From Clostridia bacterium (GTDB lineage: Bacteria > Bacillota > Clostridia > Oscillospirales > Acutalibacteraceae), in NCBI GenBank assembly GCA_017429345.1, contig JAFRPB010000153.1:1-21993 (forward strand): 21,993 nt of DNA. Reading direction: 5' to 3'. Shown here in pieces: positions 3,385-21,928 of the stretch (position 1 is its first letter; each line of letters opens with the position of its first letter). The position numbers and the translations under genes are program-made. The notes beneath the pieces were generated by a model. That model did not search any database and was not told the DNA's origin. It saw nothing but the letters and a program-made list of their open reading frames with translations.

Positions 3385-3763
3385 TAAATTTCATCCACCT
3401 TTCCTGTGATTTCGGCAGATGCCTTACTTGCAGAAGCGCCATCGGTGTTTCCTTGTGAAGAGGGTAAACGGTAACGGGAGCAACGGTTTTCGCCTTGTGG
3501 GCGGCAATTCAGGCATATCCTGTTTGTGATTTTTATGTATTTTTGACACTACTACTCGAAATTTTATCTTTTTAATGATCCTATTCTACACTATCCGGAA
3601 GATTTTTTCAAGCTTTTTTACGAAATATGTGTTTTTTTGTGAAAAAATATTATAATAGACAACTGATAATCAAATAAAAACAGCTTGATTTATCCGAAAA
3701 ATACAAAAAATCGGATCGCGCGGAGCGTAAATGTAAAATTTTTTTCGGCGTCTTCACGTAAAA

Positions 3764-3801
3764 AACGGAGAGCGCGGACGGTCCGGTCCGTTCTCTCCGT
3801 T
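3764..3801 (-). terminator. Rho-independent terminator for the esterase/GH3 operon (minus strand).
   Basis: Stem aacggagag / ctctccgtt enclosing a GC-rich loop. On the minus-strand RNA it is followed by UUUUUUAC. Lies 34 nt past the stop of the 3835..4875 gene. Confidence 0.55.
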
Positions 3802-3834
3802 CTGCGGTTTTCTTTTTTTCGCTTTTTCTCGCCG

Positions 3835-6956: not shown

Positions 6957-7024
6957 AAAAGCGCGCTCCTTTCCCGATCCTTCTTCCATTGTATAAAATA
7001 TTCCGCCGCAATGCAATCTTTTAT

Positions 7025-7053
7025 TTGCGTTTGGGGAGAAAATATGGTTTAAT
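7025..7053 (+). promoter_or_regulatory. Putative sigma-70 promoter for the lyase gene: -35 TTGCGT, 17-nt spacer, extended -10 TGgTTTAAT.
   Basis: TTGCGTttggggagaaaatatggTTTAAT located 30 nt upstream of the GGAGAG RBS/ATG at 7084. Confidence 0.4.
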
Positions 7054-7083
7054 AAAGACAGAAAGAAAAAGGAGAGACGGAAA

Positions 7084-9084
7084 ATGCAGATACTGAAAGT
7101 CATTTTGTCGGCGCTCTTGTCTTTGATCAGCGTGTTTACGACGAACGGATTCGGCAAATATACGCCGCATCTCGCGGTGATCCCGGACCTCGTGCGCGTC
7201 GGTGCGGAGGCGCTGCGTCTGAACGTATGGGACGGCGCGCCGGATAAAAAAGAAGTCGCCGCGGCGCTTGAGAATGCAGAGGTCCCGCACCCCTTCGTGC
7301 TCGCGGGCGCGGAGCGGTTCGACCTTCTGCGCTTAGAGTTTGCTTCCGGCGGGGCCCCGGAATACGCTTCGGATCTTCTGAAGTACGTGCTCGCGAACGC
7401 GGACGCGCTGCTCGATACGCAGGTTTTCCCGCCCCTTGCCTACGAGCTCGACGAGGAGAACAGCATCCTGCCGATCTCCCGCGAGACCATGAACCGCATC
7501 GTGATCCTGGGCCTTGCGCGGCAGGTCACGGGCGAGGAAAAATATTTCACTCGCGCGTGGGAAGAGCTCGAGAACGTCTGCAATTATCCCGACTGGTGCA
7601 CCGGGCATTTTCTCGCCACCGCGGAGATGGCGCTCGCCGTCGCGGTCGGGTACGACTGGCTGTATGAGGATCTGACCGACGCGCAGCGCGATCTGCTCGC
7701 CGAAACGACGCTGCAGTACGCGATCAGGCCCGCGATCTCGGCGGTGAATACGGGAAAATGGTACACAACGACGAAGAACAACTGGAACAGCATCTGTTAC
7801 AGCGGTGTCGGCATCGCCTGTATGACGCTTGCGGACCGGTACCCCGCGGAGGCGGCGAAATACCTGGCGAGATGCTTTAAGTATATGCCCGCGGCGTATG
7901 AGAATTTCACGCCGGACGGCGTGTATATCGAGGGCCCGGGCTACTGCGAATCCGGCATGAACGCGATCGTGTATTTCATCGCCACGGCGCGGGAGCGCTT
8001 CGGCACCGATTTCGGCATGTCGGAGCTGCCCGGCTTCCGGGAGCTGGGCATGTTCCCGGTCTATATCTCCGGCAGCGTCGGCGAATTCAATTTCGGCGAC
8101 AACCGGAACCGCGCGTTTTATTCCCCCGCGCTGGACTGGTACGCGGCGAATTATAACGAGCCGCTGCTGGCGGTGCATCAGATGAGCGGCGGCGTGGGCG
8201 AATACGCCGCGGGAGAGCCGGTCTATACGGAATCGAACGGCGACGGCAGGGAGAACGCGCTCTCGGCGCTCTGGTACGACCGCTCGTTCACGGGCGACAG
8301 AGCGCAGTTCTCTTCGCAGCCGAAGAGCGTCTATCTGCGCTCCGACTGCGGGCAGGAGCTGGTGCTGATGCGCTCGGCGTATCTTGAAAAAAACGCGTTC
8401 TTCGTCGGGATGAAAGCGGGCGACAATTTCATCAATCACGGCGATCTCGATATCGGCACCTTCGTTTACGACGCGCTCGGCGAGCGCTGGGCGGCGGAGC
8501 TCGGTCCCGGACCCTACGACGCGCCGGGGTATTTCTTCAACCCGCCCGCGGGCGGCCGCTGGCGCAATTACTGCAAGCGCGCCGAGGGGCAGAATACGCT
8601 CGTGATCAATCCGGATATGACGCTTGACGATCAGTACGCGCTCGCGCGGTGCGTATTCTCCGACGTGGAGATCGGCGACGGCGGCGGCGCGTGCCGGATC
8701 GATCTGACGGACGCCTACCGCATGAACGGCGCGATAAGCGCGGTGCGTTCGTTCGCCTTCGACGCGGATACCGGCGCGCTGACGGTCGCGGACGAGGTCA
8801 AATGCCTTGTGAAAAGCGATATTTACTGGTTCATGCACACCCGCGCCGCGATCGAAATTTCCGAAGACGGCAAAACAGCCGTGCTGAAGCAGAACGGCAA
8901 ACAGATCACGGCCGTTCTCTCGGGCGACGGCGAATTCTCCGTGCGGGAATGCGAATCGCTTAAACCGAATTACGTTTATCCCGAAACGCACGACGGCGTG
9001 CGCAGACTGACCGTCGCGCTCACCGGCGTGCGCGAGGCGAATATTTCGGTACGGCTGGCGCCGGAAATCAGAATATGGAGATAG
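7084..9084 (+). CDS. Secreted heparinase II/III-like polysaccharide lyase family protein (666 aa)
   Basis: N-terminal signal peptide (MQILKVILSALLSLISVFT). Central (alpha/alpha) toroid-type motifs (WNSICYSGVGIACMTLAD) and a C-terminal beta-sandwich with NHGDLDIGTFVYDALGERW, typical of the heparinase II/III-like (alginate/heparin lyase) fold. Divergent from the GH3 operon. Confidence 0.55.
   Translation: MQILKVILSALLSLISVFTTNGFGKYTPHLAVIPDLVRVGAEALRLNVWDGAPDKKEVAAALENAEVPHPFVLAGAERFDLLRLEFASGGAPEYASDLLKYVLANADALLDTQVFPPLAYELDEENSILPISRETMNRIVILGLARQVTGEEKYFTRAWEELENVCNYPDWCTGHFLATAEMALAVAVGYDWLYEDLTDAQRDLLAETTLQYAIRPAISAVNTGKWYTTTKNNWNSICYSGVGIACMTLADRYPAEAAKYLARCFKYMPAAYENFTPDGVYIEGPGYCESGMNAIVYFIATARERFGTDFGMSELPGFRELGMFPVYISGSVGEFNFGDNRNRAFYSPALDWYAANYNEPLLAVHQMSGGVGEYAAGEPVYTESNGDGRENALSALWYDRSFTGDRAQFSSQPKSVYLRSDCGQELVLMRSAYLEKNAFFVGMKAGDNFINHGDLDIGTFVYDALGERWAAELGPGPYDAPGYFFNPPAGGRWRNYCKRAEGQNTLVINPDMTLDDQYALARCVFSDVEIGDGGGACRIDLTDAYRMNGAISAVRSFAFDADTGALTVADEVKCLVKSDIYWFMHTRAAIEISEDGKTAVLKQNGKQITAVLSGDGEFSVRECESLKPNYVYPETHDGVRRLTVALTGVREANISVRLAPEIRIWR
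9064..9078 (+). repeat. Degenerate copy (13/15) of the motif, gaaatcagaatatgg, inside the last codons of the lyase gene.
   Basis: Shares the exact 10-mer aaatcagaat plus a following tgg with the 13260-13274 copy. Chance expectation for a 10-mer in 22 kb is ~0.04. Confidence 0.3.
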
Positions 9085-9111
9085 GAGGTTCGGAAGTAGG
9101 AGGTTCGGAAG
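9082..9111 (+). repeat. Perfect tandem duplication of the 15-mer TAGGAGGTTCGGAAG (two SD-like GGAGG elements), beginning at the lyase stop codon.
   Basis: 9082-9096 and 9097-9111 are identical. They are followed by the palindrome aagtcgcttcgcgactt (9109-9125). Confidence 0.6.
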
Positions 9112-9270
9112 TCGCTTCGCGACTTGAATAGAAGAGAGAGTAAAGGAAAAACCGTTGCAAATCATAACAATTTTGCTTGTTTTACCGTTTCTATAATTGG
9201 GGTATGGGGCGGAGCCCCATCATTACCTCCTCCCTCCTCCTTCCTACTTCCTCCTTCATCGGGCGCAGCC

Positions 9271-9286
9271 CGATAAATCAGAATTT
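9271..9286 (+). repeat. Copy 2 of the CGATAAATCAGAATTT motif. Single half-site immediately 5' of the RBS of the first WYL-like gene.
   Basis: Exact 16-mer. GAAAGGAG RBS begins 1 nt after the motif, ATG at 9300. Confidence 0.6.
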
Positions 9287-9299
9287 GAAAGGAGTCTCC

Positions 9300-10520
9300 A
9301 TGCCCTACCAAGAGCTGATCAAAAATTTTTCCCGGGTACGGGCGTACCTGCGCCAGTTTTACGTTTACGGCTTCCGCAGCCGGAGCGAATTCGACGAAAA
9401 AAGCGCCCGTTCCTATGACGATGAGCGCCGCCGGGTCGAAAGCTGGCTGAGGGAGTACGTGTCCGCCCGCCGCACGCCGGAGGGAAAGAATATCTATATC
9501 TCCGTTGACAGCCGCCGCAGGAGCCGTGATCCTCTTTACCGGGTGTGGAAAACGAAGAGCTTCACCGACGGCGATATCACCTTGCACTTTCTGATCTTTG
9601 ACGTTCTTTATACGCCAACGGCGGCGCTGACTGTAACCGGGATCCTTTTGGGGATCGATGAGCGGCTTTCCGCATTTCCTTCGGCGAAGACCTTCGACGA
9701 GTCCACCCTGCGCAAAAAGCTGGAGGAGTACGTCCGGGAGGGACTGATCGTAAAAGAGAAAAAAGGCAGAGCCGTGTTTTACCGGCGCGCGCAGGGAACG
9801 CCGCTGCCCGAGGCGGACGCGCTGGCGTTTTTCTCCGAAGCTGCGCCCTGCGGCGTGATCGGCTCTTTCCTTGAGGATAAGACCGATGAGCGTCCGGAGC
9901 ATTTTTTATTCAAGCATCATTATATCACCCAGACGGCGGACAGCGAGATCCTTTGCCGCGTCTTCGAGGCGATCTCCGACCGGCGGGAGCTGATCTCCGT
10001 TTCCCGACACCGGGAATCGCTCGCGCGCGTCCTGCCGCTGCGGGTCTATATCAGCGTGCAGGGCGGCAGACAGTATCTGGCGGCTTACGACTTCGATATG
10101 AAACGCGTCGTTTTTCAGCGAATAGACCTGATCGAGTCCGTCGCTGCGGGGCCGGTTTGCGGGGAGTTTGAAACGTACCGGAGAAAACTGGACGGGCTTG
10201 CGCCGCATATCTGGGGCGTAAGTCTCTCCGGCAGAGCGCTCGAGCACGTCGATTTTACGATCCGTTATGAAGACGACGAGCCCCATATTCCCCTGCGCCT
10301 CGAGCGGGAAAAACGCTGCGGAACGGTGGAGCGGCTGAATGCGAATGAAAGCCGCTTTTCCGCCGGGCTGTACGACGCGGGGGAGCTGATTCCATGGATG
10401 CGCACATTTATCGGCAGGATTACGGAGTATCACTTCTCAAGTCCGAAGCGGGAAGAGCGGTTCCGGGAGGATCTGGAACGGATGTATGCACAGTACGGGA
10501 TCGGAGGCGACGAAGAATGA
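9300..10520 (+). CDS. WYL/WCX-like putative ligand-sensing transcriptional regulator, paralog 1 (406 aa)
   Basis: Start at MPYQELIK (RBS AGGAG 7 nt upstream); the longer ORF-track start has no RBS. Central wHTH-like segment (TFDESTLRKKLEEYVREGLIVKEKKGRAVFY). WYL-like strand motif KRVVFQRIDLIESV. C-terminal WCX-like tail ELIPWMRTFIGRITEY. Stop overlaps the next start (ATGA). Family assignment rests on motif recognition, not a search. Confidence 0.5.
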   Translation: MPYQELIKNFSRVRAYLRQFYVYGFRSRSEFDEKSARSYDDERRRVESWLREYVSARRTPEGKNIYISVDSRRRSRDPLYRVWKTKSFTDGDITLHFLIFDVLYTPTAALTVTGILLGIDERLSAFPSAKTFDESTLRKKLEEYVREGLIVKEKKGRAVFYRRAQGTPLPEADALAFFSEAAPCGVIGSFLEDKTDERPEHFLFKHHYITQTADSEILCRVFEAISDRRELISVSRHRESLARVLPLRVYISVQGGRQYLAAYDFDMKRVVFQRIDLIESVAAGPVCGEFETYRRKLDGLAPHIWGVSLSGRALEHVDFTIRYEDDEPHIPLRLEREKRCGTVERLNANESRFSAGLYDAGELIPWMRTFIGRITEYHFSSPKREERFREDLERMYAQYGIGGDEE

Positions 10521-11431
10521 CCTTTTTCAGCGAGCTTTACGGCGCTTATTACAACGCTGTCGCGAAGATCCTTGCCGCCGCCGTGCAAAGCCCCGTGACG
10601 AAGGAGGATATCCGCCGCATCGTGCGGGAGAACGCCTTCGCCGAAAGCGGGATTGAGATCGAATCGGCGATCTTCGCGCGATGGCAGCTGCTTGACGAGC
10701 GGGGCGGAACGCCGCTTCGGCATGTGCCCACGACACCCCTGACGCATCTGCAGAAGCGTTGGCTCAAGGCGGTCTCTCTTGACCCGCGTCTTGCGCTATT
10801 TGACGCGCCTTTTCCGGAGCTCAAGGGTGTGGAGCCGTTGTTTCAACCGGAGGATATCTGTGTGTTCGACCGTTTCACGGACGGCGACCCCTATGGGGAC
10901 GAAACCTATATTCGCATATTCCGCATTATGATGAGCGCGGTGCGGGAGCGGACGCCGCTTTACGTCGAGATGCTTGCCCCGAGAACAGGTGCGCGGAAAA
11001 TGATTCTGCTGCCCCTGAAGCTGGAATATTCTGAAAAGGACGATAAATTCCGTCTGCTTGCGGCGGACGGCAGGGGAGAGGTTACATTGAATCTGGCGCG
11101 GGTCACGCTGTGCCGTCCCTATGACGGTGCGCCGGTGCATTTTGCGAACCCGGCGGATTTTGCCGGCAATCGGGAAGAACGCAACTTTGTGCTTGAACTG
11201 ACGGAAGAGCGCAACACTCTTGAGCGGGTGATGCTGCATTTCGCCCATTTCAGAAAGGAAGCCCGGCGGGCGGAGAACGGCAGATATCTTGTAAGAGTCT
11301 TTTACGAGCGTCCGGACGAGACGGAGCTGGTGATCCGCGTGCTCTCATTCGGCCCCACCGTGACCATCCGCGAACCGGACCGGTTCGCCGGACTGGTGAG
11401 AGAACGGCTTTTGAAACAGTATAAATTCTGA
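10517..11431 (+). CDS. WYL/WCX-like putative regulator, paralog 2 (304 aa), translationally coupled to paralog 1 (PafB/PafC-like pair)
   Basis: C-terminus LVIRVLSFGPTVTIREPDRFAGLVRERL closely matches the conserved WCX tail of WYL regulators (...[VI]LSFGP-V-VLEP-ELRE...). WYL-like segment LPLKLEYSEKDDKFRLLAADG...LNLARVTLCR. GGAGG 10 nt upstream. Stop TGA lies inside motif copy 3. Confidence 0.5.
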   Translation: MTFFSELYGAYYNAVAKILAAAVQSPVTKEDIRRIVRENAFAESGIEIESAIFARWQLLDERGGTPLRHVPTTPLTHLQKRWLKAVSLDPRLALFDAPFPELKGVEPLFQPEDICVFDRFTDGDPYGDETYIRIFRIMMSAVRERTPLYVEMLAPRTGARKMILLPLKLEYSEKDDKFRLLAADGRGEVTLNLARVTLCRPYDGAPVHFANPADFAGNREERNFVLELTEERNTLERVMLHFAHFRKEARRAENGRYLVRVFYERPDETELVIRVLSFGPTVTIREPDRFAGLVRERLLKQYKF

Positions 11432-11486
11432 TTTATCGTTCTGCCGTGATACCATGTGCGCTTGACTCCGCGACAAATCAGAATTT
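11423..11486. repeat. Inverted pair of the motif (AAATTCTGATTTATCG ... CGACAAATCAGAATTT) around a 32-nt spacer. The left arm overlaps the WYL paralog-2 stop codon.
   Basis: 11423-11438 is the exact reverse complement of the 16-mer. 11471-11486 is a 15/16 copy (T to C at position 4) in direct orientation. Confidence 0.6.
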
Positions 11487-11491
11487 AACTT

Positions 11492-11527
11492 CGCATCTTT
11501 TTTTCCGTGAAAAAGGTGCGTTTTTTT
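11492..11527 (+). terminator. Rho-independent terminator after the WYL gene pair: stem cgcatcttttt / aaaaaggtgcg (one G-U), 7-nt loop, then TTTTTTT.
   Basis: Inverted repeat 11492-11502 / 11510-11520 followed by a T7 run at 11521-11527. Confidence 0.5.
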
Positions 11528-11535
11528 GTTATACT
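11527..11535 (+). promoter_or_regulatory. Extended -10 element TGtTATACT immediately after the terminator. Candidate promoter for the long leader/SPFH transcript.
   Basis: TG at -15/-14 followed by TATACT. Weak -35 (cgtgaa). The downstream ~430 nt carry no credible ORF before the SPFH start. Confidence 0.3.
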
Positions 11536-11962
11536 CTTCCTGCAGGATCGCCAGAGCGGGCGCTTCGCGGGAAGCCGCGGCGCTGCGGTGCACAGGATGA
11601 TATCCTTTTTATGTATGCCGGCGATGCTGCGGCGCGTGATAAGCGCATCGTGCAAGGCCGCACATTATTGCGGGTTCGACTCCCGCCGCGAGCAAATCGT
11701 GACCGATGGTTGGTGTTTATTGAGGAACTGCATTTTATGCGTCAGTTGCACAGAAAAAAGAAACGGCGTTCCGGCGAATCGATGCGGAAAATCTTCTCCC
11801 GCGTTTTCGCAGCGCGGACGGAGCCCTGCCTTTCGGCGGATACCGCTTTGCAAAACGGAAGACCGAATTATCCGTCTTTCGCCGGTCGAAGCTCAAGCCG
11901 GGAGCCGCCCCGTCGGCGCGGAACGCCGCGACGCGATCAACCTTTTAGGAGGAATATATATT

Positions 11963-13072
11963 ATGAAAAAAAGTATGATCAAAAAGACCGTCGTTCACGA
12001 GAACGAAAGAGGCCTGCTGTTCAAAAACGGCAGGTTCGTCCGCAGGCTCCTGCCGGGCAGATACTACGCCGTCGGCGACAGCGAGATCGAAACGCTGCCC
12101 GTGTCCGCGCCGCTGCGATCGGCGTTCTGTGAGACGCAGACGCTTCTGCGCGACCCGCAGATCGCTTCGGAGACCGCCCGCGTGGACGTTCGCGACAGAC
12201 AGAGGGCGCTGCACTATGCGGATGGCAGGTTCAAAGAGCTGCTTCCCGTCGGTACACACGTATTCTGGACCGCCGCCGGCGCACACGAATTCCGCGTGCT
12301 GGACGCCTCCGTTCCCGATCTGCCGGAGGATTTTCCCCGCGACATTCCGGCTGACATTCTCGGCAGTGACGTCTGCACGTTTGTGATCCATGCCGAAGAG
12401 GTAGGACTGCTGTTCGTCAACGGCAGGTTCGACCGTCTGTTGGAAGCCGGCGTCCACGCGTTTTGGGATCTGCCTGAGTTCCGGGTCTCCGTACGCTGCA
12501 GCGATACTCAGCTGCAGCAGATGAATATCTCCTCGCAGGAGCTGCTGACCGCAGACCGGGTCACGATCCGCGTCAATTTTGTGGTCGGCTGGCGCGTCAC
12601 CGACCACGTCCGTGCGGCGTTGGAGCTGGACAATCAGACAGAACTGCTTTACACCGCCGCGCAGCTGGTGCTGCGGGAGGTCGTCGGCAAATACCGCCTT
12701 GACGAGCTTCTGGAACATAAAGAGGCCCTCTCCGGCGAGGCGCTGGAGCTGCTGCGCAAAAAAGCGGAGTCCCTCTTCGCCGAGGTGACCGACGCGGGCG
12801 TAAAGGATATCATTCTGCCCGGCGAGGTGCGGGATATCATGAACACTGTCCTGGTGGCGGAAAAGCGCGCGCAGGCCAACGTCATTACCCGCCGTGAAGA
12901 GGTCGCTTCCACCCGTTCGCTGCTCAACACGGCGAAAATGATGGAAGAGAATCCCACGCTTTATAAGCTCAAGGAGCTGGAATATGCGGAGCGCATCTGC
13001 GAGAACGTGGGAAATATCAACCTCAACGGCGGGGACCTGCTCGGCGGGCTACTGGCGGTGTTGGGAAGGTAA
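11963..13072 (+). CDS. Cytoplasmic SPFH/band-7 (stomatin-prohibitin-flotillin-HflKC) domain protein with a triplicated N-terminal motif (369 aa)
   Basis: AGGAGG RBS 10 nt upstream of ATG 11963; the 5' extension of the ORF track is Arg/Cys-rich junk. SPFH core (RVNFVVGWRVTDHVRAALELDN...LREVVGKYRLDELLEHKEAL...VKDIILPGEV...AEKRAQANVITRREE), then a coiled-coil tail. Three N-terminal repeats of G-LLF-NGRF---LL-G-H-FW. No N-terminal TM helix. Confidence 0.65.
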   Translation: MKKSMIKKTVVHENERGLLFKNGRFVRRLLPGRYYAVGDSEIETLPVSAPLRSAFCETQTLLRDPQIASETARVDVRDRQRALHYADGRFKELLPVGTHVFWTAAGAHEFRVLDASVPDLPEDFPRDIPADILGSDVCTFVIHAEEVGLLFVNGRFDRLLEAGVHAFWDLPEFRVSVRCSDTQLQQMNISSQELLTADRVTIRVNFVVGWRVTDHVRAALELDNQTELLYTAAQLVLREVVGKYRLDELLEHKEALSGEALELLRKKAESLFAEVTDAGVKDIILPGEVRDIMNTVLVAEKRAQANVITRREEVASTRSLLNTAKMMEENPTLYKLKELEYAERICENVGNINLNGGDLLGGLLAVLGR

Positions 13073-13107
13073 ATTCTGATTTATCGCGGAGCGATAAATC
13101 AGAATTT
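13071..13107. repeat. Perfect 37-bp palindrome built from two inverted motif copies, AAATTCTGATTTATCGC-GGA-GCGATAAATCAGAATTT, starting inside the SPFH stop codon.
   Basis: Read directly; both 17-nt arms are exact reverse complements with a 3-nt spacer. Stop TAA at 13070-13072. Confidence 0.7.
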
Positions 13108-13252
13108 AGTCCCGAGTTTCAAGCCCCGAGTCTCGATGCGATAATTTTCAGTCAGGATAATAAATGGAAAAACGTATTGTTTCCTGCTGTTTTACCAAGA
13201 CGCACGAGCTTACCTCACGTATCTCGGAACTCGGAACTCGGGACTCGGGACT
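13108..13252. repeat. Inverted arrays of the heptamer CTCGGRA flanking an 85-bp AT-rich core: two copies on the left in reverse orientation, four perfect tandem copies on the right.
   Basis: Left arm agtcccgagtttcaagccccgagtctcg (13108-13135). Right arm ctcggaa ctcggaa ctcggga ctcggga (13223-13250). The right arm is immediately followed by motif copy 5. Confidence 0.5.
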
Positions 13253-13256
13253 TTAT

Positions 13257-13272
13257 CGATAAATCAGAATTT
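13257..13272 (+). repeat. Copy 5 of the CGATAAATCAGAATTT motif. Single half-site immediately 5' of the RBS of the hypothetical gene, embedded in the local palindrome TTTATCGATAAA.
   Basis: Exact 16-mer. GGAAGGAG RBS starts 1 nt after, ATG at 13286. Same motif-RBS-ATG layout as at 9271. Confidence 0.6.
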
Positions 13273-13285
13273 GGAAGGAGAAGCC

Positions 13286-13840
13286 ATGAAACATACTGTC
13301 GACCGCGGAGAGCTTTGGGACGCATGTAATTATTCCTTTCAATATGCTGATAAGTTTCCCACACGATATTATAATATCAACGACGAACGCATCGAAGCGC
13401 TTGAGGATGTTCTCGTCGCGCTGAATATTCCACAGACCCGATTTCAGACTTATTATTATGATTACGATTATATCCCCATTCCCGTGACGCCGCTGGTGCC
13501 CGCGCTGAAAGCCTACGTCGAAACGGTGAACGATAAAAACATCCGCCGTGCGCTGCGCGACGTGCCGGATGACAGATACGAATGCGCTTTTAACCGTATC
13601 TGTTGGGATGACCGGGAATTCCGTCACGGCTGGAATGAGTTTTCCGCGGATATCGTAAACGGGGTCTGTGAGCGGTGGTGCGCGGAATACAATGTGACGC
13701 CGATCCGGGATCCCAGATGCGCATGGACCGGGGAAAAAGACAGGGAGTTCAATGCCGCTTCCGCCCGCAGAATGCAGAAAGAATATGAAGCGTCGAAAGG
13801 GCGGTTCCGAAGATATCGGAAAGAAAAGAGCAAATATTGA
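13286..13840 (+). CDS. Hypothetical Cys/Trp-rich protein with a basic C-terminal tail (184 aa), no recognisable family
   Basis: Good RBS (AGGAG, 5-nt spacer). Codon usage consistent with neighbours. Conserved-looking Cys pairs (CAFNRICW, VCERWCAEY, PRCAWTG) and a KGRFRRYRKEKSKY tail. Directly upstream of the rtcB remnant with an 24-nt gap. Confidence 0.45.
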   Translation: MKHTVDRGELWDACNYSFQYADKFPTRYYNINDERIEALEDVLVALNIPQTRFQTYYYDYDYIPIPVTPLVPALKAYVETVNDKNIRRALRDVPDDRYECAFNRICWDDREFRHGWNEFSADIVNGVCERWCAEYNVTPIRDPRCAWTGEKDREFNAASARRMQKEYEASKGRFRRYRKEKSKY

Positions 13841-13864
13841 ATTTTTAAAGGAAGTGAACCGGAA

Positions 13865-14192
13865 TGATTGCCGTTTACGGAAAATACAATACAGCCCTTT
13901 GCTACTGCTCCGTTTCGGAGGAGGCTGCGGCGGAGCAGATCAGAACGATTTGCGACAGGGCGAGTTCGCGGCTTCGTGTATCCGCATCATGCCCGACGTG
14001 CACGCCGGCAAAGGCTGCACCATCGGCACAACGATGACGCTGACCGACAGGGTCGTGCCCGCGATGGTCGGCGTCGATATCGGCTGCGGAATGCTCACGG
14101 TCAAGCTGAACGCGCGGGAGCTTGACTTTGCCCAGATGATCATCTGCCGCTGCGGTTCCGTAACAGGGGGCGTGCAGTTTATGGAGAAATAA
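13865..14192 (+). pseudogene. rtcB: RtcB RNA-ligase remnant: N-terminal ~110 codons only, with a -1 frameshift near 13950, then truncation
   Basis: Frame-2 start MIAVYGKYNTALCYCSVSEEAAAEQIRTICD continues in frame 0 as (Q)GEFAASCIRIMPDVHAGKGCTIGTTMTLTDRVVPAMVGVDIGCGM. This matches the N-terminus of bacterial RtcB (MPDVHxGxG...VGVDIGCGM). Re-reading the shared c at the junction restores ...ICDQGEFAASCIRIM. The ORF ends ~35 codons after GCGM, whereas intact RtcB is ~400-480 aa. Followed by a terminator and a low-GC gene on the opposite strand. Confidence 0.6.
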
Positions 14193-14224
14193 TATTGGCT
14201 CACCGATTTTTTTTTACAACTCAA

Positions 14225-14260
14225 AAGCCGAGAATCACCAAAGTCAGTGGTTCTCGGCTT
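14225..14260. terminator. Rho-independent terminator (10-bp stem aagccgagaa / ttctcggctt) shared by the convergent rtcB remnant and the membrane-protein gene.
   Basis: Perfect stem around a 16-nt loop. The minus-strand RNA continues UUUUGAG. The plus strand has T9 just before the stem. Confidence 0.6.
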
Positions 14261-14300
14261 CTTTGACGCTGTTTATTTACATCCTTTTATTTACTTTGAT

Positions 14301-15950
14301 TTAAGGAGTTGTCATAATCTGAACTAAAATAACATCTTTGTTTTCAATAATACGAAATCGGCTTGTCGGATCGTTTGCAACAACCATTTTTCTTGCTTCT
14401 GCCTTTTGCTCCGCGGAACAGGATTGCAGCGAATATCCCAACCTCTGCATGACCCGCAGGTAATTATCATTATAAGCCCATCCTATATAAGAAGTGTACG
14501 CAGTAAACGAATCGGCAATTTGATCTGCAAGTTCTTCCGAGGATCGGAATACATATCCATAACCCCGCACTTTATCATAGAATCTTTTCGGCAGAACATT
14601 ATCAAACAACAAAGCTGAATATTTTCTGTACTGTGTCATTATAAGATTCGGCTCGTTTTTGGAATGCCGCAAGCTTTCGGGAAGTTGATAGTTTTCCGCC
14701 GAAAACACAACCGGCTTGCTTTGCGTATCATATTCGAGCAGCTCTTTTCCTATATCCTGCAGCAGAGAGATCTCATAAGTGTGTCTTTCAAAATTATCAA
14801 CTGCGTAATTATTGATATCTTTCGTTTGATTTAAAACGATTACCACCAGCACACATGAAATAACAATGTGCAGTTTTTTGTTTTGGCGGCAATACAGAAA
14901 CAACAGCATAATGACAAACGCAACAAAAACGGAAAGCGTCTGCATCTGTCTGAATTCAACCATACGCCCAATGAGCAGCGGAAGCGAAACCACAGACAGA
15001 CACAATATGATAAAAATGCATGCGGGGAACAAGGATCGTTTTTTCACGGAAAGCAAAACAGCCCCTGTCGTTCCGATAACGACGGTAACAAGAAACATCA
15101 GCAAAAACGGAAGAGAAATGCTGCCGATAACAAATGAGGTGAACATCATAACGATAAACCGAACCAGATTTTTGATCGGAGCTCCGGACAGCCAATATAT
15201 TTTAGTATTCGGCTCATACCAAAATTTCGTTGTACCGCAAATGACAAGATTGACCAGCTTTGATATGATAAGATCTACAATAACAGCTGCAAGCAGCAGG
15301 CCGACAGCCATCGCAGCAAGAACAAGATAATCCTTTATACCTGCTGTTGTTCGGTTATCATAATAAAAAAACAGCAAAAGAGACGCAAAAAAACCAACCA
15401 AATATACACTCGCAAAAGATTCGTACATATCTACGGCGGGAATCAACGCAAGCAAAGAAATAACTAACCGTTTTACAAGGTGTTTTTTGTCAGCAAATCC
15501 CAAATAGAGCTGGCAGAGTGAAACAGGAACCAGAACGTATGCCAAAACGATATTAAGAACCGGATACGTCAGCTGTGCGGTAATCACGGGATAGGATACA
15601 AAAACCGTACCAAACGCAATTTGCGCCGATTGGGGAATTTTATCTCCGGATACGACTGAAAACAATACGGACCACGCAACAGATGCACAAAAGAGAATAA
15701 TCGCCGTTAATGCAGTATGCCAGAACGGGGCAAAATTCATCCAATTTGTTAACAAATGAATCAAAGGCGTCGCCCATCTGCCGGCACCGACCAATATGGA
15801 TCCATTGTAATACTCCGGCATCAGCTGATCAATATGGATTGAGTAGTGACTTGCATAAAAGCCATAAGAGAGTATCAGCGTAATGACAACGGATATTATG
15901 TACCCCTTATTGCGGGACAAAAACGATAAAACAGAATTCGGTTGGTTCAT
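14301..15950 (-). CDS. Polytopic integral membrane protein (>=11 predicted TM helices plus ~170-aa C-terminal soluble domain), possible GT-C-fold glycosyltransferase-like. Low-GC, likely horizontally acquired.
   Basis: Long hydrophobic segments throughout (e.g. YIISVVITLILSYGFY, LTAIILFCASVAWSVLFSVV, LLLAAVIVDLIISKLVNLVI). GC ~42% versus ~60% around it. Start placed at MNQPNSV (15950), which has GGAG 6 nt upstream; the ORF-track start MEYYM (15962) has no RBS. Functional call is by architecture only. Confidence 0.55.
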   Translation of the reverse strand: MNQPNSVLSFLSRNKGYIISVVITLILSYGFYASHYSIHIDQLMPEYYNGSILVGAGRWATPLIHLLTNWMNFAPFWHTALTAIILFCASVAWSVLFSVVSGDKIPQSAQIAFGTVFVSYPVITAQLTYPVLNIVLAYVLVPVSLCQLYLGFADKKHLVKRLVISLLALIPAVDMYESFASVYLVGFFASLLLFFYYDNRTTAGIKDYLVLAAMAVGLLLAAVIVDLIISKLVNLVICGTTKFWYEPNTKIYWLSGAPIKNLVRFIVMMFTSFVIGSISLPFLLMFLVTVVIGTTGAVLLSVKKRSLFPACIFIILCLSVVSLPLLIGRMVEFRQMQTLSVFVAFVIMLLFLYCRQNKKLHIVISCVLVVIVLNQTKDINNYAVDNFERHTYEISLLQDIGKELLEYDTQSKPVVFSAENYQLPESLRHSKNEPNLIMTQYRKYSALLFDNVLPKRFYDKVRGYGYVFRSSEELADQIADSFTAYTSYIGWAYNDNYLRVMQRLGYSLQSCSAEQKAEARKMVVANDPTSRFRIIENKDVILVQIMTTP

Positions 15951-16187
15951 GTAATACTCCATGAATTATTATAATCAACAGCCCACACGAAAACGGGTGT
16001 TTCTTCTTTCAGCAGAGGGAGATCCGCGCCTCGTTCCCCATTTATAAATAACGGTGTCGGACGCTCATATTTTTTCATCGGGTACGGGCAGAGGTCGTCC
16101 GCCATATGGCGCAGCCGCATATCACACGCGAAACGTATATCATCCGCAGTAGGCGAATATCATTCGGCAACGCCGAATATCATTGCA

Positions 16188-16233
16188 AAATTCTGGTTTA
16201 TCGAGGCATGAATGCCTCGATAAACCAGAATTT
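16188..16233. repeat. 46-bp near-perfect palindrome made of two inverted variant motif copies, AAATTCTGGTTTATCGAGGCAT-GA-ATGCCTCGATAAACCAGAATTT, ending 3 nt from the ddh stop codon.
   Basis: Both 22-nt arms are exact reverse complements. The core differs from the other copies by one base (ACCAGAATTT vs ATCAGAATTT). On the minus-strand RNA the stem is followed by AAUUUUGC, so it may also terminate ddh. Confidence 0.65.
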
Positions 16234-16236
16234 ATC

Positions 16237-17223
16237 TTATACCAGATGCGCTCTCTGCTCCTCGGCCGAGGACGGCAGCAGGTAGGTCGGGGCGATATCC
16301 AGCACGGTATGCGCGCCGAATTTCTTTTCGCCTGCAAGGCGGTACGCCGCCCGCGCGTAGGCGAGCAGCACGCTCGTGGTGAACTCGGGGTTCGAGTCGA
16401 GCTTGAGCGAATATTCGATCAGATGCTTCGTCTCGCCGTTTTCCCCGGTCGCGCCGGCACGCAGCACGAAGCCGCCGTGCGCCATGCCGCTGTGATCACG
16501 AACGAATTCCTCTTCGGTGATGAATTTCACCGTGGTGTCGTTGTCGGCGAAATAGTTGGGCATGGTCTTGATCTCTTCCTCGATCCGGGCAAGATCCGCG
16601 CCCTCCTCGGGTACGACGTAGCAAAGACGGGTGTGCTTTTCACGCGTGGTGAGGTCGGGCGTTTCGCCGCTTCTGATGCGGTCGATCGCCGCCTGTACGG
16701 GGATCGTATACTGCTTGCCGTTCTTCACGCCCTTGATGCGGCGGATCGCGTCGGAATGGCCCTGACTGACGCCCTTGCCCCAGAACGTGTAATCCTTGCC
16801 GTTTGGCAGCACCGCGTTCGCGTAGGCGCGCGCGATGGAGAACAGGCCGGGATCCCAGCCCACGGAGATGATCGCGGTCGTGCCCGCCGCCTTCGCCGCG
16901 GCGTCCACGTTCGCGAAATGCTGCGGGAGTTTCGCGTGCGTATCGAACGAGTCGATCACGTTGAAATATTTCGCGTATTCCGGCGTCTGCACGGGCAGAT
17001 CCGTCGCGCTGCCGCCGCAGATGATCATCACGTCGATCTTGTCCTTCCACTGCGGCGCTTCCGCCGCGGCGACCACGGGCACGCCCGGGGTTTTGATCTG
17101 CAGCTTCGAAGGATCTCTGCGTGTGAATACCGCAACGAGCTCCGCATCCGGCGCGCATTTCACCGCAAGCTCGACGCCTTTGCCGAGATTGCCGTAGCCC
17201 ATGATTCCGATTCTCATACTCAT
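16237..17223 (-). CDS. ddh: meso-Diaminopimelate D-dehydrogenase (328 aa)
   Basis: MSMRIGIMGYGNLGKGVE Rossmann N-terminus, then ...MIICGGSATD..., VGWDPGLFSI, FWGKGVSQGHSDAIRRIKGV, and GMAHGGFV. Collinear with Corynebacterium/Clostridia Ddh over the full length. RBS GGAGAG 6 nt upstream. The ORF-track N-terminal extension was rejected. Confidence 0.85.
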   Translation of the reverse strand: MSMRIGIMGYGNLGKGVELAVKCAPDAELVAVFTRRDPSKLQIKTPGVPVVAAAEAPQWKDKIDVMIICGGSATDLPVQTPEYAKYFNVIDSFDTHAKLPQHFANVDAAAKAAGTTAIISVGWDPGLFSIARAYANAVLPNGKDYTFWGKGVSQGHSDAIRRIKGVKNGKQYTIPVQAAIDRIRSGETPDLTTREKHTRLCYVVPEEGADLARIEEEIKTMPNYFADNDTTVKFITEEEFVRDHSGMAHGGFVLRAGATGENGETKHLIEYSLKLDSNPEFTTSVLLAYARAAYRLAGEKKFGAHTVLDIAPTYLLPSSAEEQRAHLV

Positions 17224-17258
17224 ATAATTCTCTCCTTTTCTAAATTTGTTACAAAATA

Positions 17259-19675: not shown

Positions 19676-21928
19676 ATGATGAGGAAGTGTTTGTCTTTTT
19701 TCATGACTCTGGTTCTCCTGCTTACCGCGTTTCCGGTCGGCGCAGTTTTCGCTCACGCCGCAGAAATCATTGACAGCGGTGAATGCGGCGAAAACGTAAC
19801 ATGGACGCTGGACAGCGAGGGTGTTCTCACGATCGAAGGCGAGGGAGATATGTTTAATTGGGAGGATCCCGACGGAATCGTATCACCCTTCTGTGATATG
19901 GGTAATACCATCTCTGAAGTCAATATAAAAAACGGCGTAACAAGAATCGGAGATTATTCGTTTTACGGATGCGGCAGCCTGACTTCGGTCGCTATTGCGG
20001 ATAGTGTGACGGCCATAGGCGAGGATGCGTTTTACGGCACCGCGTATTATAATGATAAAACCAACTGGATCGACGGTGTGTTATATATCGATAATGCTTT
20101 GATCAAAGCTGACGAAGAAGCAATTGCCGAAAATTATACAATAAAAAAAGGTACAACGGTCATTGCCGATAAGGCATTTATCTATTGCACAGATCTGACG
20201 GGCATCATGATCCCCGACAGTGTGACAAGCATTGGTTTTTACGCTTTTTTTTATTGCACCGATCTGACAGATATAACGTTTCCGGACAGCGTGACAAGCG
20301 TTGGCGATTATGCGTTTTATAATACGGATTATTATAACAACGATAAAAATTGGGTCGACGGCGTATTATATTTCGGCAAGGCATTGATCAAAGCTGACGA
20401 AGAGACCTTAAACGGAAGCTATGCGATAAAAGAAGGAACAAAGGTCCTTGCCGACGGAGCGTTTTTCAACTGTAACCGTTTGACGTCGGTCAATATTCCG
20501 AACAGTATCATCAGAATCGGCAGTTCTGCGTTCGGCAACTGTAAAAACCTGACTTCGGTAACGGTTCCGGATAGTGTGATGAGCATCGGCAGCGCTGCGT
20601 TTGTAGGCTGCAGCAACATGACCTCGGTAACGATTCCAAACGGTGTGAGGAGCATCGGCAGGGCTATGTTTGGTGAATGCAGTAAATTGACGTCATTCAC
20701 GGTTCCGGACAGCGTGACGGGCATTTGCGATTTTGCGTTTTACAGCTGTCGTAATCTGAAGACGGTCGCTATCGGAAAAAATGTAACAAGTATCGGGGAG
20801 TCCGCGTTTTACGATTGCCGCAGTTTGACGTCGGTCACGATCCCGGACAGCGTGATAAACATCGGGGAGTGCGCATTTTCCGATTGCGCCGGGCTGACGT
20901 CAGCCACGCTCGGAGACAATGTGATAAGCGTTGGCGAGAGTGCGTTTTCCGATTGCAGCAGCCTGAGGTCTGTTGCGATCGGAGACAAAGTGACGAGCAT
21001 CGGGGACGCGGCATTTTTCAATTGCAACAGACTGAAAAAAGTAATTTATTCCGGCAGTAAAGATGACTGGGACGAAATCGAGATCGGGAAAGAAAACGAT
21101 GATTTAATCGGCGCGAAAATGCAATACTTGAGGGTTGCTTCCGAAACGACAGAGACTTCCTCCGTGACGGCAGCTCCCACTACAAACGAACCCCCGACTG
21201 AAACGGAATCTTTGACCGCAACGGAACCCCCGACTACAACGGATGTTCCAATTGCAACGGATGCCCCAACCGGAACGGAAGCGCCGACTTCGACAGAAGT
21301 CACGACCGCGACGAAACCCGCGACTACGACGGAACCCACGACTACGACGGAACCCACGACCGCGACGGAACCTGCGACTGCGACGGAACCCACGACTGCG
21401 ACGGAAACGCCGGCCATTACCGAACCTGTCAAGGCAATCGAATCCAAAGACGCGGAAAAGGCGATTGTGAATGCCGAAAAGAAACAGGTCGCGATCCGGC
21501 CCGGGCAGTCGCCCGACGAGCTGAAAGACCTTCTCGGCGGGAATGTGATGATCCTCGGCGCGGACGGCAAGGCGCTTGACGCGGGCAAAAAAGTCGGCAC
21601 CGGCTGTATCGTTAAAACTCCCGACGGCGCGGAATACACAATTGTCGTCCCCGGCGACACGGACGGCGACGGCAAGGTCGGCGCGTCCGACGCGAGAAAA
21701 GCCCTTCGCGCCTCGGCAAAGCTTGATTTGCTTTACGGCGCGTACGGCAGAGCAGCGGACATCAACGCCGACGGCAAGATAAAAGCCGCCGACGCACGCT
21801 CGATCCTGCGCATCGCCGCGAAGCTCGACGAGATCACAAAAGATATCCTTGCTAAGGCAACACCGCACAAATGCGAATGCGCGTCTTGCTTGATCTTTGT
21901 TTCGTCATCCTGCACAGCTTTTTCTTGA
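19676..21928 (+). CDS. Secreted cellulosome-associated surface protein: BspA-type leucine-rich-repeat domain, Thr/Pro/Glu-rich linker, C-terminal type-I dockerin (750 aa)
   Basis: Signal peptide MMRKCLSFFMTLVLLLTAFPVGAVFAHA. ~15 tandem ~23-aa LRR_5 units (IPDSVTSIGxxAFxxCxxLTSVTI). Linker TEPTTTTEPTTATEPATATE. Dockerin Ca-binding pairs DTDGDGKVGASDARKALRASAKL and DINADGKIKAADARSILRIAAKL, resembling Ruminococcus-type dockerins. Confidence 0.75.
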   Translation: MMRKCLSFFMTLVLLLTAFPVGAVFAHAAEIIDSGECGENVTWTLDSEGVLTIEGEGDMFNWEDPDGIVSPFCDMGNTISEVNIKNGVTRIGDYSFYGCGSLTSVAIADSVTAIGEDAFYGTAYYNDKTNWIDGVLYIDNALIKADEEAIAENYTIKKGTTVIADKAFIYCTDLTGIMIPDSVTSIGFYAFFYCTDLTDITFPDSVTSVGDYAFYNTDYYNNDKNWVDGVLYFGKALIKADEETLNGSYAIKEGTKVLADGAFFNCNRLTSVNIPNSIIRIGSSAFGNCKNLTSVTVPDSVMSIGSAAFVGCSNMTSVTIPNGVRSIGRAMFGECSKLTSFTVPDSVTGICDFAFYSCRNLKTVAIGKNVTSIGESAFYDCRSLTSVTIPDSVINIGECAFSDCAGLTSATLGDNVISVGESAFSDCSSLRSVAIGDKVTSIGDAAFFNCNRLKKVIYSGSKDDWDEIEIGKENDDLIGAKMQYLRVASETTETSSVTAAPTTNEPPTETESLTATEPPTTTDVPIATDAPTGTEAPTSTEVTTATKPATTTEPTTTTEPTTATEPATATEPTTATETPAITEPVKAIESKDAEKAIVNAEKKQVAIRPGQSPDELKDLLGGNVMILGADGKALDAGKKVGTGCIVKTPDGAEYTIVVPGDTDGDGKVGASDARKALRASAKLDLLYGAYGRAADINADGKIKAADARSILRIAAKLDEITKDILAKATPHKCECASCLIFVSSSCTAFS

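Follow-up and report, generated by a model that had tools for sequence, protein, structure and literature searches.

A short interval of a 21,993-nt stretch of DNA (the window) from an uncultured rumen Clostridia bacterium very likely bears the scar of at least two independent events in one lineage: the joining of the 5′ part of rtcB to the 3′ end of degV, and the separate insertion of a low-GC cassette. The locus is a pseudogene junction of an ordinary kind adjoining an acquired gene, and ordinary gene decay together with horizontal gene transfer account for it. At least two events are needed because the open reading frame (ORF) that starts as rtcB ends in degV 3′ sequence, and in the closest available genome, L008, degV is intact and the locus has neither rtcB nor a glycosyltransferase gene. 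The rtcB truncation and the glycosyltransferase insertion are considered separate events because the rtcB stub does not adjoin the low-GC DNA directly: a 3′ remnant of the native degV lies in between. The anatomy of the locus, its recurrence across several assemblies, its synteny with the L008 locus, the foreign composition of the cassette and the GT-C fold of its product are direct observations; how and in which order the events took place, and what activity and substrate the glycosyltransferase has, are inferred.

An rtcB stub joined to a degV remnant

Codons 1-91 of an rtcB gene of ~400 codons are retained on the forward strand at 13864-~14135 (23% of the gene). The start codon is intact, with AAGGAAGTG just before it. 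The initial annotation had claimed that the RtcB N-terminus through VGVDIGCGM can only be read by joining two frames, with a shift near ~13950, and both claims were borne out. Codons 1 to ~31 occupy the original frame (13864..13955), as seen in the ORF list, the DNA alignment and a tblastn search with the 400-aa RtcB of L172, and codons ~32-91 continue in the -1 frame (13956..14130), where Pfam RtcB, PHROG 1075 and tblastn all matched. In the tblastn search, RtcB residues 1-33 mapped to 13864-13962 and residues 34-92 to the other frame. DNA alignment with two rtcB genes placed a 1-nt gap, a single missing base, between 13955 and 13956 (TGCGA-CAGG; GA|CAGG here, GAT/GAC-CAG/CGG in relatives). 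By itself, the original frame continues to a stop at 14037, giving a 57-aa ORF. The -1 frame segment holds IRIMPDVHAGKGCTIGT and VGVDIGCGM, the latter with the equivalents of the metal ligands Asp95 and Cys98. The two joined frames matched PF01139 with an E value of 5.7e-13, only over profile positions 12-64 of 426, and PHROG 1075 ('tRNA splicing ligase') matched the stub with an E value of 1.5e-26. The joined 91 aa showed 66-76% identity to RtcB N-termini, aligned over 100% of their length, and a phmmer search of this peptide against the PDB gave no match.

In PhoRtcB (P. horikoshii numbering), the metal ligands are Asp95, Cys98, His203, His234 and His329, and His404 is the nucleophile (PMC9745838). 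Of these six residues, the stub supplies just two, the Asp and Cys in VGVDIGCGM, and the four His fall in the missing 77%. The 1-nt deletion and the presence of residues 1-92 of 400 only leave no uninterrupted full-length RtcB frame (~365-480 aa). With two of the six active-site residues and without the guanylylated His, the fragment is, judged from its sequence, dead and cannot ligate RNA. The stub is a pseudogene and not a member of the RtcB family in the functional sense. An intact rtcB orthologue was sought in all compared loci, and none was found outside this species.

RtcB similarity stops at ~14130-14138 (...RELDFAQ). The loss of rtcB had been placed exactly at the edge of the low-GC segment, which proved incorrect: the similarity is followed by 62 nt (14131-14192, forward strand) with 82% identity to the 3′ end of L008 degV in blastn, and the low-GC DNA begins only past the degV stop codon. 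On the basis of this nucleotide identity and of synteny, the sequence was identified as the 3′ remnant of a degV (fakB-like) gene, comprising the last 20 codons and the TAA stop, in agreement with tblastn (DegV residues 255-281 against the window, E 4e-4) and with the codon view. The remnant is joined in frame to the shifted rtcB frame, and the stop codon of the ORF (14190-14192) lies 32 codons past GCGM, close to the ~35 initially estimated. The junction falls within 14109-14138, with a possible microhomology GCGCnnGAGnTnGAC. Conserved DegV C-terminal residues are changed in the remnant (H->R, P->S and G->V, turning HxGPG into RCGSV). The 27-aa tail of the window gave no DegV/FakB profile match; the 29-aa tail of L008 hit PF02645 weakly (E 0.013). 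No further rtcB or degV pieces were detected by tblastn in the window or the 27-kb contig, and the reciprocal junction of an inversion (degV 5′/rtcB 3′), sought on the same contig, was not found.

The L008 gene is a DegV (TIGR00762, 3e-68) with intact 281 codons, which converges on ddh at a distance of 277 bp. The remnant has the same position and orientation relative to ddh, the native meso-diaminopimelate dehydrogenase gene (16237..17223, reverse strand; Pfam DAPDH_C 1.3e-75), which is convergent with it and served as the syntenic anchor. L008, whose ddh product is 95% identical in amino acids, provided the only outgroup locus for synteny. A ddh search of metagenome contigs gave no relative above 73% identity among the matches listed, and L008 therefore stays the sole close outgroup. 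The polarity (insertion here versus loss in L008) was derived from composition and from the truncated state of degV.

The locus sequence is identical, without gaps, in ERZ28654098, ERZ27256811 and ERZ28654133, and a 98.8%-identical contig of another strain (L007) is present in ERZ28654131. The frameshift is present in L001-L003 and L007. In all, the same sequence is found in five assemblies, which stem from at least two studies and were made with two assemblers. Because it recurs in four other metagenome assemblies, the frameshift is not an assembly error. Strain L007 carries a D->Y change at the metal-site Asp of VGVDIGCGM and also an M->I change, and the very small number of substitutions (five) that separate the two strains over the rtcB'+'degV stretch comprise 1 synonymous and 4 non-synonymous. 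The retention of the frameshift in L007 together with the loss of the metal-binding Asp to Tyr indicates, at the level of sequence, that the stub is under neutral decay and is not a functional mini-protein.

Upstream of the stub lies a 184-aa gene (13286..13840, forward strand; GC3 0.56) that is very divergent and UPF0158-like, with a YYYDYDYIPIP motif and a weak UPF0158 match. With 8 synonymous versus 5 non-synonymous differences between strains, it is apparently under purifying selection. The ORF had no PHROG, NCBIfam or PADLOC match, no relative among the ORFs beside viral rtcB and nothing in the search of genome contigs; a homologue word-index search returned its own cluster only, and the single-sequence AF2 model was unusable (pLDDT 36). 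The gene is unlinked to rtcB in other genomes. The homologue P0143 is flanked by cysK- and nifS-like genes, and the 184-aa gene therefore has no functional link to rtcB.

A low-GC cassette and its flanking repeats

In sliding windows, the GC content was 39-44% across 14200-16200 versus ~60% in the flanks, in line with the drop first noticed over 14200-~16190. The insertion spans 14193-16236 (~2 kb) in the degV-ddh spacer. Its gene (14301..15950, reverse strand; GC 41.2%) encodes an intact GtrII-family GT-C glycosyltransferase of 549 aa, and an exact-protein match was obtained with the 549-aa start. A polytopic GT-C-like membrane protein had been predicted here from the letters alone. PF14264 matched with 48.1 bits (cut-off 30) over profile positions 6-317 of 317, placing the protein in the GtrII family, and the architecture is that of GT-C enzymes, with a polytopic N-terminal membrane domain, an extracytoplasmic C-terminal domain and a fold similar to solved GT-C enzymes. 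In a 20-sequence family alignment, the first extracytoplasmic loop holds an invariant Asp (D41), a candidate for the acidic catalytic residue, together with nearly invariant residues. The enzyme would move a sugar from a polyprenyl-phosphate donor to a cell-surface polymer.

The GC3 of the glycosyltransferase gene is 0.43, versus 0.77-0.82 in native genes; the comparison with membrane-protein genes that had been proposed gave 0.84-0.87 for two native genes of this type (polytopic) from the contig and so upheld the unusual composition. Based on this foreign composition and on its absence from the orthologous L008 spacer, the GT-C gene was very probably acquired horizontally. Its homologues are at most 52% identical and are lone genes in unrelated contexts; they also form low-GC islets in two other high-GC relatives. 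The gene had no PHROG match and no relative in viral contigs. Between strains, 3 synonymous versus 5 non-synonymous differences were counted, numbers that do not demonstrate purifying selection. No gtrA/gtrB-like partner genes occur in the window, and the neighbours are the rtcB'/'degV scar and ddh, so that the gene does not form a gtrABC cassette.

A hairpin at 14226..14259 (-27 to -28.5 kcal/mol, z -4.4 to -5.1) has a 13-bp core stem. Read on the minus strand, it runs into the proper U-tract, UUUUGAGUU, and is therefore mainly the intrinsic terminator of the glycosyltransferase gene (reverse strand). The initial annotation had taken it for a shared terminator; the hairpin is indeed strong, but the two genes do not share it equally. 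It has no counterpart in L008, where another hairpin follows degV. At the other end of the cassette, upstream of the glycosyltransferase gene and on the same (reverse) strand, a Gut-1-like RNA motif (16114..16185) consists of four UGAUAU repeats separated by three small hairpins. Rfam RF01706 scored 46.3 bits, slightly below the gathering score of 50, with an E value of 2e-6 for the whole window and a match over the full model length. The predicted minimum free energy was no better than that of shuffled sequences, and the copies in L001-L004 are identical. No copy was found in L008, L168, L170 or L171. The idea that Gut-1 regularly accompanies this glycosyltransferase family was rejected, given that it was not seen in L168, L170 and L171.

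Between the Gut-1-like motif and ddh, a perfect 22+22 nt palindrome (16188..16233; -33 to -34 kcal/mol, z -8.7 to -10.2) lies directly against the stop codon of ddh. As initially annotated, it is a variant of the AAATTCTGATTTATCG repeat, with GG for GA in both arms. A composite intergenic repeat (13070..13272) forms the left border of the non-syntenic, lower-GC stretch. It comprises a tight motif hairpin (13070-13107), a long CGAG-rich inverted repeat (13108-13136/13224-13252) and a third motif copy (13257-13272) immediately 5′ of the RBS of the next gene. The palindromic repeats are also plain post-gene intergenic elements. The AAATTCTGATTTATCG repeat was seen only in this species, L008 and L170. 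The analysis thus had two by-products: a REP-like palindrome family restricted to the clade and, in a rumen Clostridia lineage that can be identified, a Gut-1-like RNA.

Recombination at the palindromes had been suspected from the start. The non-syntenic region does have palindromes at its outer borders (13070-13107 and 16188-16233), and L008 has them at synteny breakpoints; no copy of the motif is present at the rtcB'/'degV junction. A possible recombination role of AAATTCTGATTTATCG is raised by the copies that border the 3.2-kb lower-GC stretch on either side and by those at the L008 breakpoints. We regard it as unlikely that the AAATTCTGATTTATCG hairpins are more than terminators and act as recombination substrates that shuffle the region, and that the Gut-1-like RNA of the cassette is a cis leader of the surface glycosyltransferase. 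If the latter were true, it would give Gut-1 its first host and first gene association.

Proposed history and competing explanations

In the proposed history, illegitimate recombination (a deletion or rearrangement) would have joined RtcB codon ~91 to codon ~261 of the resident degV, destroying both rtcB and degV, with the junction in frame by chance. The 1-nt deletion at 13955/56 would have further broken the rtcB part. In the other event, the ~2 kb low-GC cassette would have landed in the short degV-ddh spacer, between the two stop codons, bringing the Gut-1-like RNA, its own terminator and the GT-C glycosyltransferase gene of GtrII type. The initial annotation preferred a single replacement, in which one recombination, perhaps between palindromic repeats, swapped the 3′ three-quarters of rtcB for the low-GC glycosyltransferase segment. 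The rtcB stub lies only ~60 nt from the low-GC gene, motif copies bracket the whole non-syntenic stretch and the palindrome is also found at an L008 synteny breakpoint, all of which fit one exchange. However, the stub is separated from the low-GC DNA by the 3′ end of the native degV, which has its own stop codon and keeps its ancestral position with respect to ddh, and one insertion into a gene would put the remnant at the edge, not in the middle. The lack of the motif at the rtcB'/'degV junction and the native-like GC3 of the stub (0.85), against 0.43 in the cassette, point the same way and leave a single replacement very unlikely. What stands of that proposal is the dead, frameshifted rtcB fragment and the foreign GT-C gene, absent from the L008 spacer; the low-GC segment did not replace the 3′ end of rtcB.

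The stub might instead be the outermost gene of a degraded prophage or island (~9.07-14.13 kb) integrated in the 3′ part of degV, with the 62-nt tail as the attR-side host fragment. Viral contigs commonly carry this RtcB subfamily (291 confirmed IMG/VR matches), always as an intact ~400-aa gene with PHROG-positive neighbours, and apart from the degV tail nothing in window positions 9082-16228 corresponds to the L008 locus. P0001, which at 76% comes closest to the RtcB-N among the proteins of the collection, is also a stub (residues 1-95) with an unrelated tail before a housekeeping gene. Such an origin is nevertheless unlikely: there is no integrase, the 406-aa, 304-aa (WYL) and 184-aa proteins have no phage-family match, and the SPFH protein only weakly matches a PHROG family annotated 'lipoprotein' (E 1.1e-7). 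Of these proteins, the two scanned against viral contigs, SPFH and the 406-aa protein, have no relatives there. Neither a reconstituted degV nor an rtcB 3′ part is present at the other end, and the GC3 of the stub (0.85) is host-like, versus 0.66 in the phage copy. RtcB residue ~90 was also considered as a truncation or att hot spot, as suggested by several short database ORFs that end there and by P0001, truncated at 95. This was rejected: those inspected resemble out-of-frame read-through or fragments from contig ends, proteins just long enough to cover the 91-aa query are ranked higher, and rtcB was intact in 80 of 80 viral loci. In the remaining explanation, the frameshift is programmed or arose as an error in sequencing or assembly, and a natural short RtcB-N domain protein is made, as the initial annotation had offered in part. 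Gene callers did predict 80-135-aa 'RtcB' ORFs here, and metagenome protein sets contain many short RtcB-N ORFs. The three further identical assemblies and the 98.8%-identical strain that shares the frameshift speak against an error, and TTGCGACAGG contains no X XXY YYZ slippery site. A mini-protein would have to work without equivalents of His203, His234, His329 and His404, with the D->Y change in the sister strain and a synonymous:non-synonymous ratio of 1:4, and the short database examples examined were frameshifted or contig-end fragments. This explanation is extremely improbable.

Implications and comparison with known systems

The 80-135-aa 'RtcB' ORF in public assemblies of this organism is a chimeric pseudogene made of an rtcB 5′ end, a frameshift and a degV 3′ end, which should not be counted as an RNA-repair function or a 'mini-RtcB'. 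The locus also illustrates that a gene fragment beside a compositional island can mimic a single replacement where synteny reveals two events. One DegV/FakB paralogue has disappeared from the lineage, which has acquired a lone GT-C glycosyltransferase. Cell-surface glycans affect phage and host recognition in the rumen, and the gain of the glycosyltransferase is a plausible source of strain-level variation in these glycans.

Compared with the RtcB family (PF01139, ~400-aa bacterial/phage subfamily), the stub retains MPDVHxGKG and VGVDIGCGM with the Asp and Cys metal ligands, but it is frameshifted, lacks the three His metal ligands and the guanylylated His, and is joined to a degV tail. The remnant resembles DegV/FakB (TIGR00762, PF02645) in its last 20 codons and stop, which match the degV of the sister genome, and in its convergent position beside ddh; ~260 of the 281 codons are gone, and what is left is too short to score against a profile by itself. 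GtrII-type proteins (PF14264) are known from the serotype-converting gtrABC cassettes of Shigella and Salmonella phages, and their fold class is that of STT3/PglB, PMT, ArnT and AftD. Unlike in those cassettes, there is here no adjacent gtrA (flippase) or gtrB (polyprenyl-phosphate sugar synthase) and no phage context, and the host belongs to Gram-positive-type rumen Clostridia.

Gut-1 (RF01706) was described from a human-gut metagenome, with the repeat UGAAAU, and was classed as not cis-regulatory (Weinberg et al., 2010, PMC2864571). The candidate likewise spans the full covariance model, with three small hairpins split by a repeated hexamer; it differs in having UGAUAU as the repeat, in coming from a rumen organism and in its possible 5′ leader position (compare PMC2864571). 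The AAATTCTGATTTATCG repeats differ from REP/BIME-like repeats in that no known RAYT-type transposase accompanies them here and some copies are single arms right before an RBS. They are alike in being short, imperfect-to-perfect palindromes at many intergenic sites just after stop codons, with arms that change together.

Structure and decay of the rtcB fragment

ORF listing and translation place a start codon (ATG, preceded by a good RBS) at 13864; the first frame begins MIAVYGKYNTALCYCSVSEEAAAEQIRTICD, and a second frame carries rtcB onward as GEFAASCIRIMPDVHAGKGCTIGTTMTLTDRVVPAMVGVDIGCGMLTVKLNARELDFAQ... When the two frames were joined, they matched Pfam RtcB (E 5.7e-13, profile positions 12-64 of 426) and PHROG 1075 'tRNA splicing ligase' (1.5e-26), and the joined stub aligned over 100% of its length with metagenome RtcB N-termini at 66-76% identity. 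The frameshift proposed in the initial annotation was confirmed: nucleotide alignment with two rtcB genes showed exactly one base missing between 13955 and 13956 (TGCGA-CAGG), and tblastn with the intact 400-aa RtcB of viral contig L172 placed residues 1-33 and 34-92 in two different frames. With this query, neither the window nor the longer 27-kb contig yielded further rtcB pieces; thus 23% of rtcB remains. The stub has neither the full-length frame nor the complete active site on which RtcB function depends.

A sequencing or assembly error combined with a naturally short RtcB-N protein had been considered as an alternative. Exact-sequence look-up of the 184-aa neighbour and of the glycosyltransferase led to contigs of three further assemblies (ERZ28654098, ERZ27256811, and ERZ28654133), which were colinear with the window, with zero gaps and 99.97-99.995% identity. 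A fourth contig, L007 (ERZ28654131), from a 98.8% identical strain, shows the same 1-nt deletion, and rtcB is truncated there as well. Between the two strains, rtcB' plus its tail carries five substitutions, one synonymous and four non-synonymous; two of them, D->Y and M->I, fall within VGVDIGCGM. The gap-free copies, the retained deletion and the 1:4 substitutions contradict that alternative. In Pyrococcus horikoshii RtcB, Asp95, Cys98, His203, His234, and His329 are metal ligands and His404 is the GMP-attachment nucleophile (PMC9745838). The counterparts of Asp95 and Cys98 lie in VGVDIGCGM, and those of the four His residues all lie in the missing part of rtcB. No slippery heptamer is present at the shift site. 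A functional mini-RtcB was rejected on the metal-site D->Y change, the four missing His residues and the absent heptamer. Together with the colinear copies, this identifies the stub as a pseudogene in decay.

The closest RtcB-N sequence, P0001 (1504-1914 of contig L253, also on L254), from another ~58% GC organism, is likewise a stub. Its residues 1-95 are 80% identical to phage RtcB and are joined to an unrelated 41-aa tail; it is flanked by a truncated lacI-like gene on one side and an apgM-like gene on the other, and its cluster has 23 members. P0001 represents another rtcB 5' remnant that arose independently. In some viral contigs, the 400-aa RtcB has an RNA-binding protein (PHROG 850) and a tRNA nucleotidyltransferase as neighbours (4384-9320 of L173), an arrangement that looks like a phage-borne RNA-repair cassette.

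The degV tail and the low-GC cassette

The adjacent ddh gene was used as query against species-representative genomes. A single close relative was obtained, the goat omasum MAG 'Clostridia bacterium RGIG2774' (locus L008; ddh 95% identical), the remaining matches being at most 73%. In L008, a 281-codon gene is convergent on ddh; its product matches DegV (TIGR00762) at 3e-68, resembles FakB, and ends in ...TIICHCGPGTVGVQFMEK and a stop. Window 14131-14192 translates as ...MIICRCGSVTGGVQFMEK and a stop, with 82% nucleotide identity to the L008 degV 3' end, which is the sole similarity between that locus and window 9082-16228. Because of this degV-like 3' end, which is in frame with the post-frameshift frame of rtcB, the apparent 'rtcB ORF' is a chimera in which rtcB codons 1-91 are followed by the final 20 degV codons with their stop. 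RtcB similarity reaches ~14138 and DegV similarity may start at 14109; within 14109-14138 a short GCGCnnGAGnTnGAC microhomology could have been common to both parental sequences. Conserved DegV residues have already changed in the tail (H->R, P->S, and G->V), which by itself no longer yields a DegV profile match. The claim that rtcB is lost exactly at the low-GC border thus did not hold, the ORF ending in degV rather than rtcB.

The GC drop from 14200 to ~16190 was reproduced, with 39-44% over about 14200-16200 and ~60% on either side. While the L008 degV-ddh stop-to-stop spacer is only 277 bp, with terminators of its own plus a CGAG-rich repeat, the same interval in the window spans 2044 bp (14193-16236), and its last element is the annotated palindrome (16188-16233), a perfect 22+22 one. 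The interval holds an intact 549-aa glycosyltransferase gene (14301-15950, minus strand) matching the GT-C/GtrII profile and fold. The hairpin at 14226-14259 has its U-tract on the minus strand and is therefore mainly the terminator of this gene; the initial annotation (14225-14260) was right about a terminator, not about its being equally shared. The GC3 of the gene is 0.43 versus 0.77-0.82 in native ddh, glmS, SPFH, GH3, and heparinase-like genes, and it is also atypical against two native, more hydrophobic membrane-protein genes of the same contig (0.84-0.87). The composition is thus unlike that of the genome's membrane-protein genes, contrary to what would have refuted the initial annotation. 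Its nearest homologues, only 47-52% identical, are lone genes at unrelated sites (by sipL/spoIVA in two genomes and by a PBP gene in another), two of the three again being low-GC islets within ~60% GC DNA, and their loci have nothing in common beyond the coding sequence. No phage connection was found: the gene has neither a PHROG hit nor a viral-contig relative. Its composition and its absence from the L008 spacer make horizontal acquisition of this putative low-GC surface-glycan gene, which the initial annotation had proposed, very probable.

A 72-nt Gut-1-like RNA (16114-16185, minus strand; Rfam RF01706) is located between the start of the glycosyltransferase gene and the palindrome and contains four UGAUAU with three small hairpins between them. 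This only Rfam match of the window is sub-threshold (46.3 bits versus a gathering score of 50, E 2e-6), with the full model covered. No such RNA was found beside the homologous glycosyltransferase genes.

Intergenic repeats and neighbouring genes

The window contains 10 copies of the 16-nt motif AAATTCTGATTTATCG (180-195, 9271-9286, 11423-11486, 13071-13107, 13257-13272, and 16188-16233), where 0.32 would be expected, and L008 contains six (5502-5534, 12325-12361, and 17192-17230), where 0.13 would be expected. Across the 3.3 Mb of retrieved loci, copies paired into hairpins were found elsewhere only in the related contig L170 (4509-4550, 4725-4765, and 10692-10728), and isolated single matches, with two mismatches each, in seven other loci; the motif is clade-specific. 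Most copies are hairpins directly 3' of stop codons, and both arms vary together (matching variants GG, AC..G, and C..C.A), so the palindrome is maintained. The single copies at 9271 and 13257 lie immediately before RBS and ATG. Copies also fall on the edges of stretches in which the window and L008 are not syntenic. Long imperfect inverted repeats (window 13108-13252; L008 reverse complement 6851-7010 and 7940-8135), with CGAG/CTCGG-rich or GGGAGAAGGGAT-type units and ~90-nt loops, are intergenic and adjoin the palindromic motif; they may be a second family of structured or MITE-like elements.

For the 184-aa gene (13286-13840, plus strand), a word-index search returned no homologues, but 10 remote relatives (136-164 aa, 23-32% identical) emerged from a full HMMER scan, so it is not strictly an orphan. 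They share YYYDYDYIPLP, NNKK, and WC.EN motifs and a weak UPF0158 signal. Most of its substitutions between strains are synonymous (eight versus five non-synonymous); they cluster in 13549-13694, a possible recombination tract. Two overlapping genes upstream of the SPFH gene (9300-11431, plus strand) are absent from L008: the 406-aa protein has no family match, and the 304-aa protein matches WYL (PADLOC WYL 5.8e-8) and, weakly, WCX domains. Together they could form a module of accessory or defence type. At 19676-21928 (plus strand), 69-nt tandem units build up the gene of a 750-aa BspA-type leucine-rich-repeat protein that carries a dockerin domain; its composition is atypical (GC3 of 0.59), and L008 lacks it downstream of glmS.

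History of the locus

The initial annotation proposed a single replacement of the rtcB 3' end by the low-GC segment. A single event does not account for the native degV tail, which separates, in its ancestral place, the stub from the cassette, and at least two events are required. A rearrangement probably brought rtcB' next to 'degV, and did so in the window's lineage, as the L008 degV is still intact and that of the window truncated; the low-GC segment was probably inserted separately between the degV and ddh stops. Moreover, block 3566-9081 lies inverted on the opposite side of glmS in L008, and 9082-13840 (406-aa ORF, WYL-domain protein, SPFH protein, composite repeat, and 184-aa gene) is missing from the 19-kb L008 locus; therefore, the neighbourhood was rearranged more than once. 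The rtcB'/'degV junction may be a plain deletion between two formerly neighbouring genes or, less probably, mark the edge of a degraded phage-derived island. Viral contigs often carry the RtcB subfamily of the stub, always as an intact gene. The genes around the stub, however, include no integrase and nothing phage-specific save a weak PHROG 'lipoprotein' match of the SPFH protein, and the stub GC3 of 0.85 is host-like.

The value of these results lies in the corrected annotation and the corrected one-event interpretation. All parts of the locus fall into familiar classes: a truncated pseudogene with a frameshift, the scar of a gene fusion, and an acquired low-GC gene. The glycosyltransferase belongs to no gtrABC cassette. 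Gut-1, of unknown function, has been described only from human-gut metagenomes (PMC2864571), whereas the copy here lies in a rumen Clostridia lineage.
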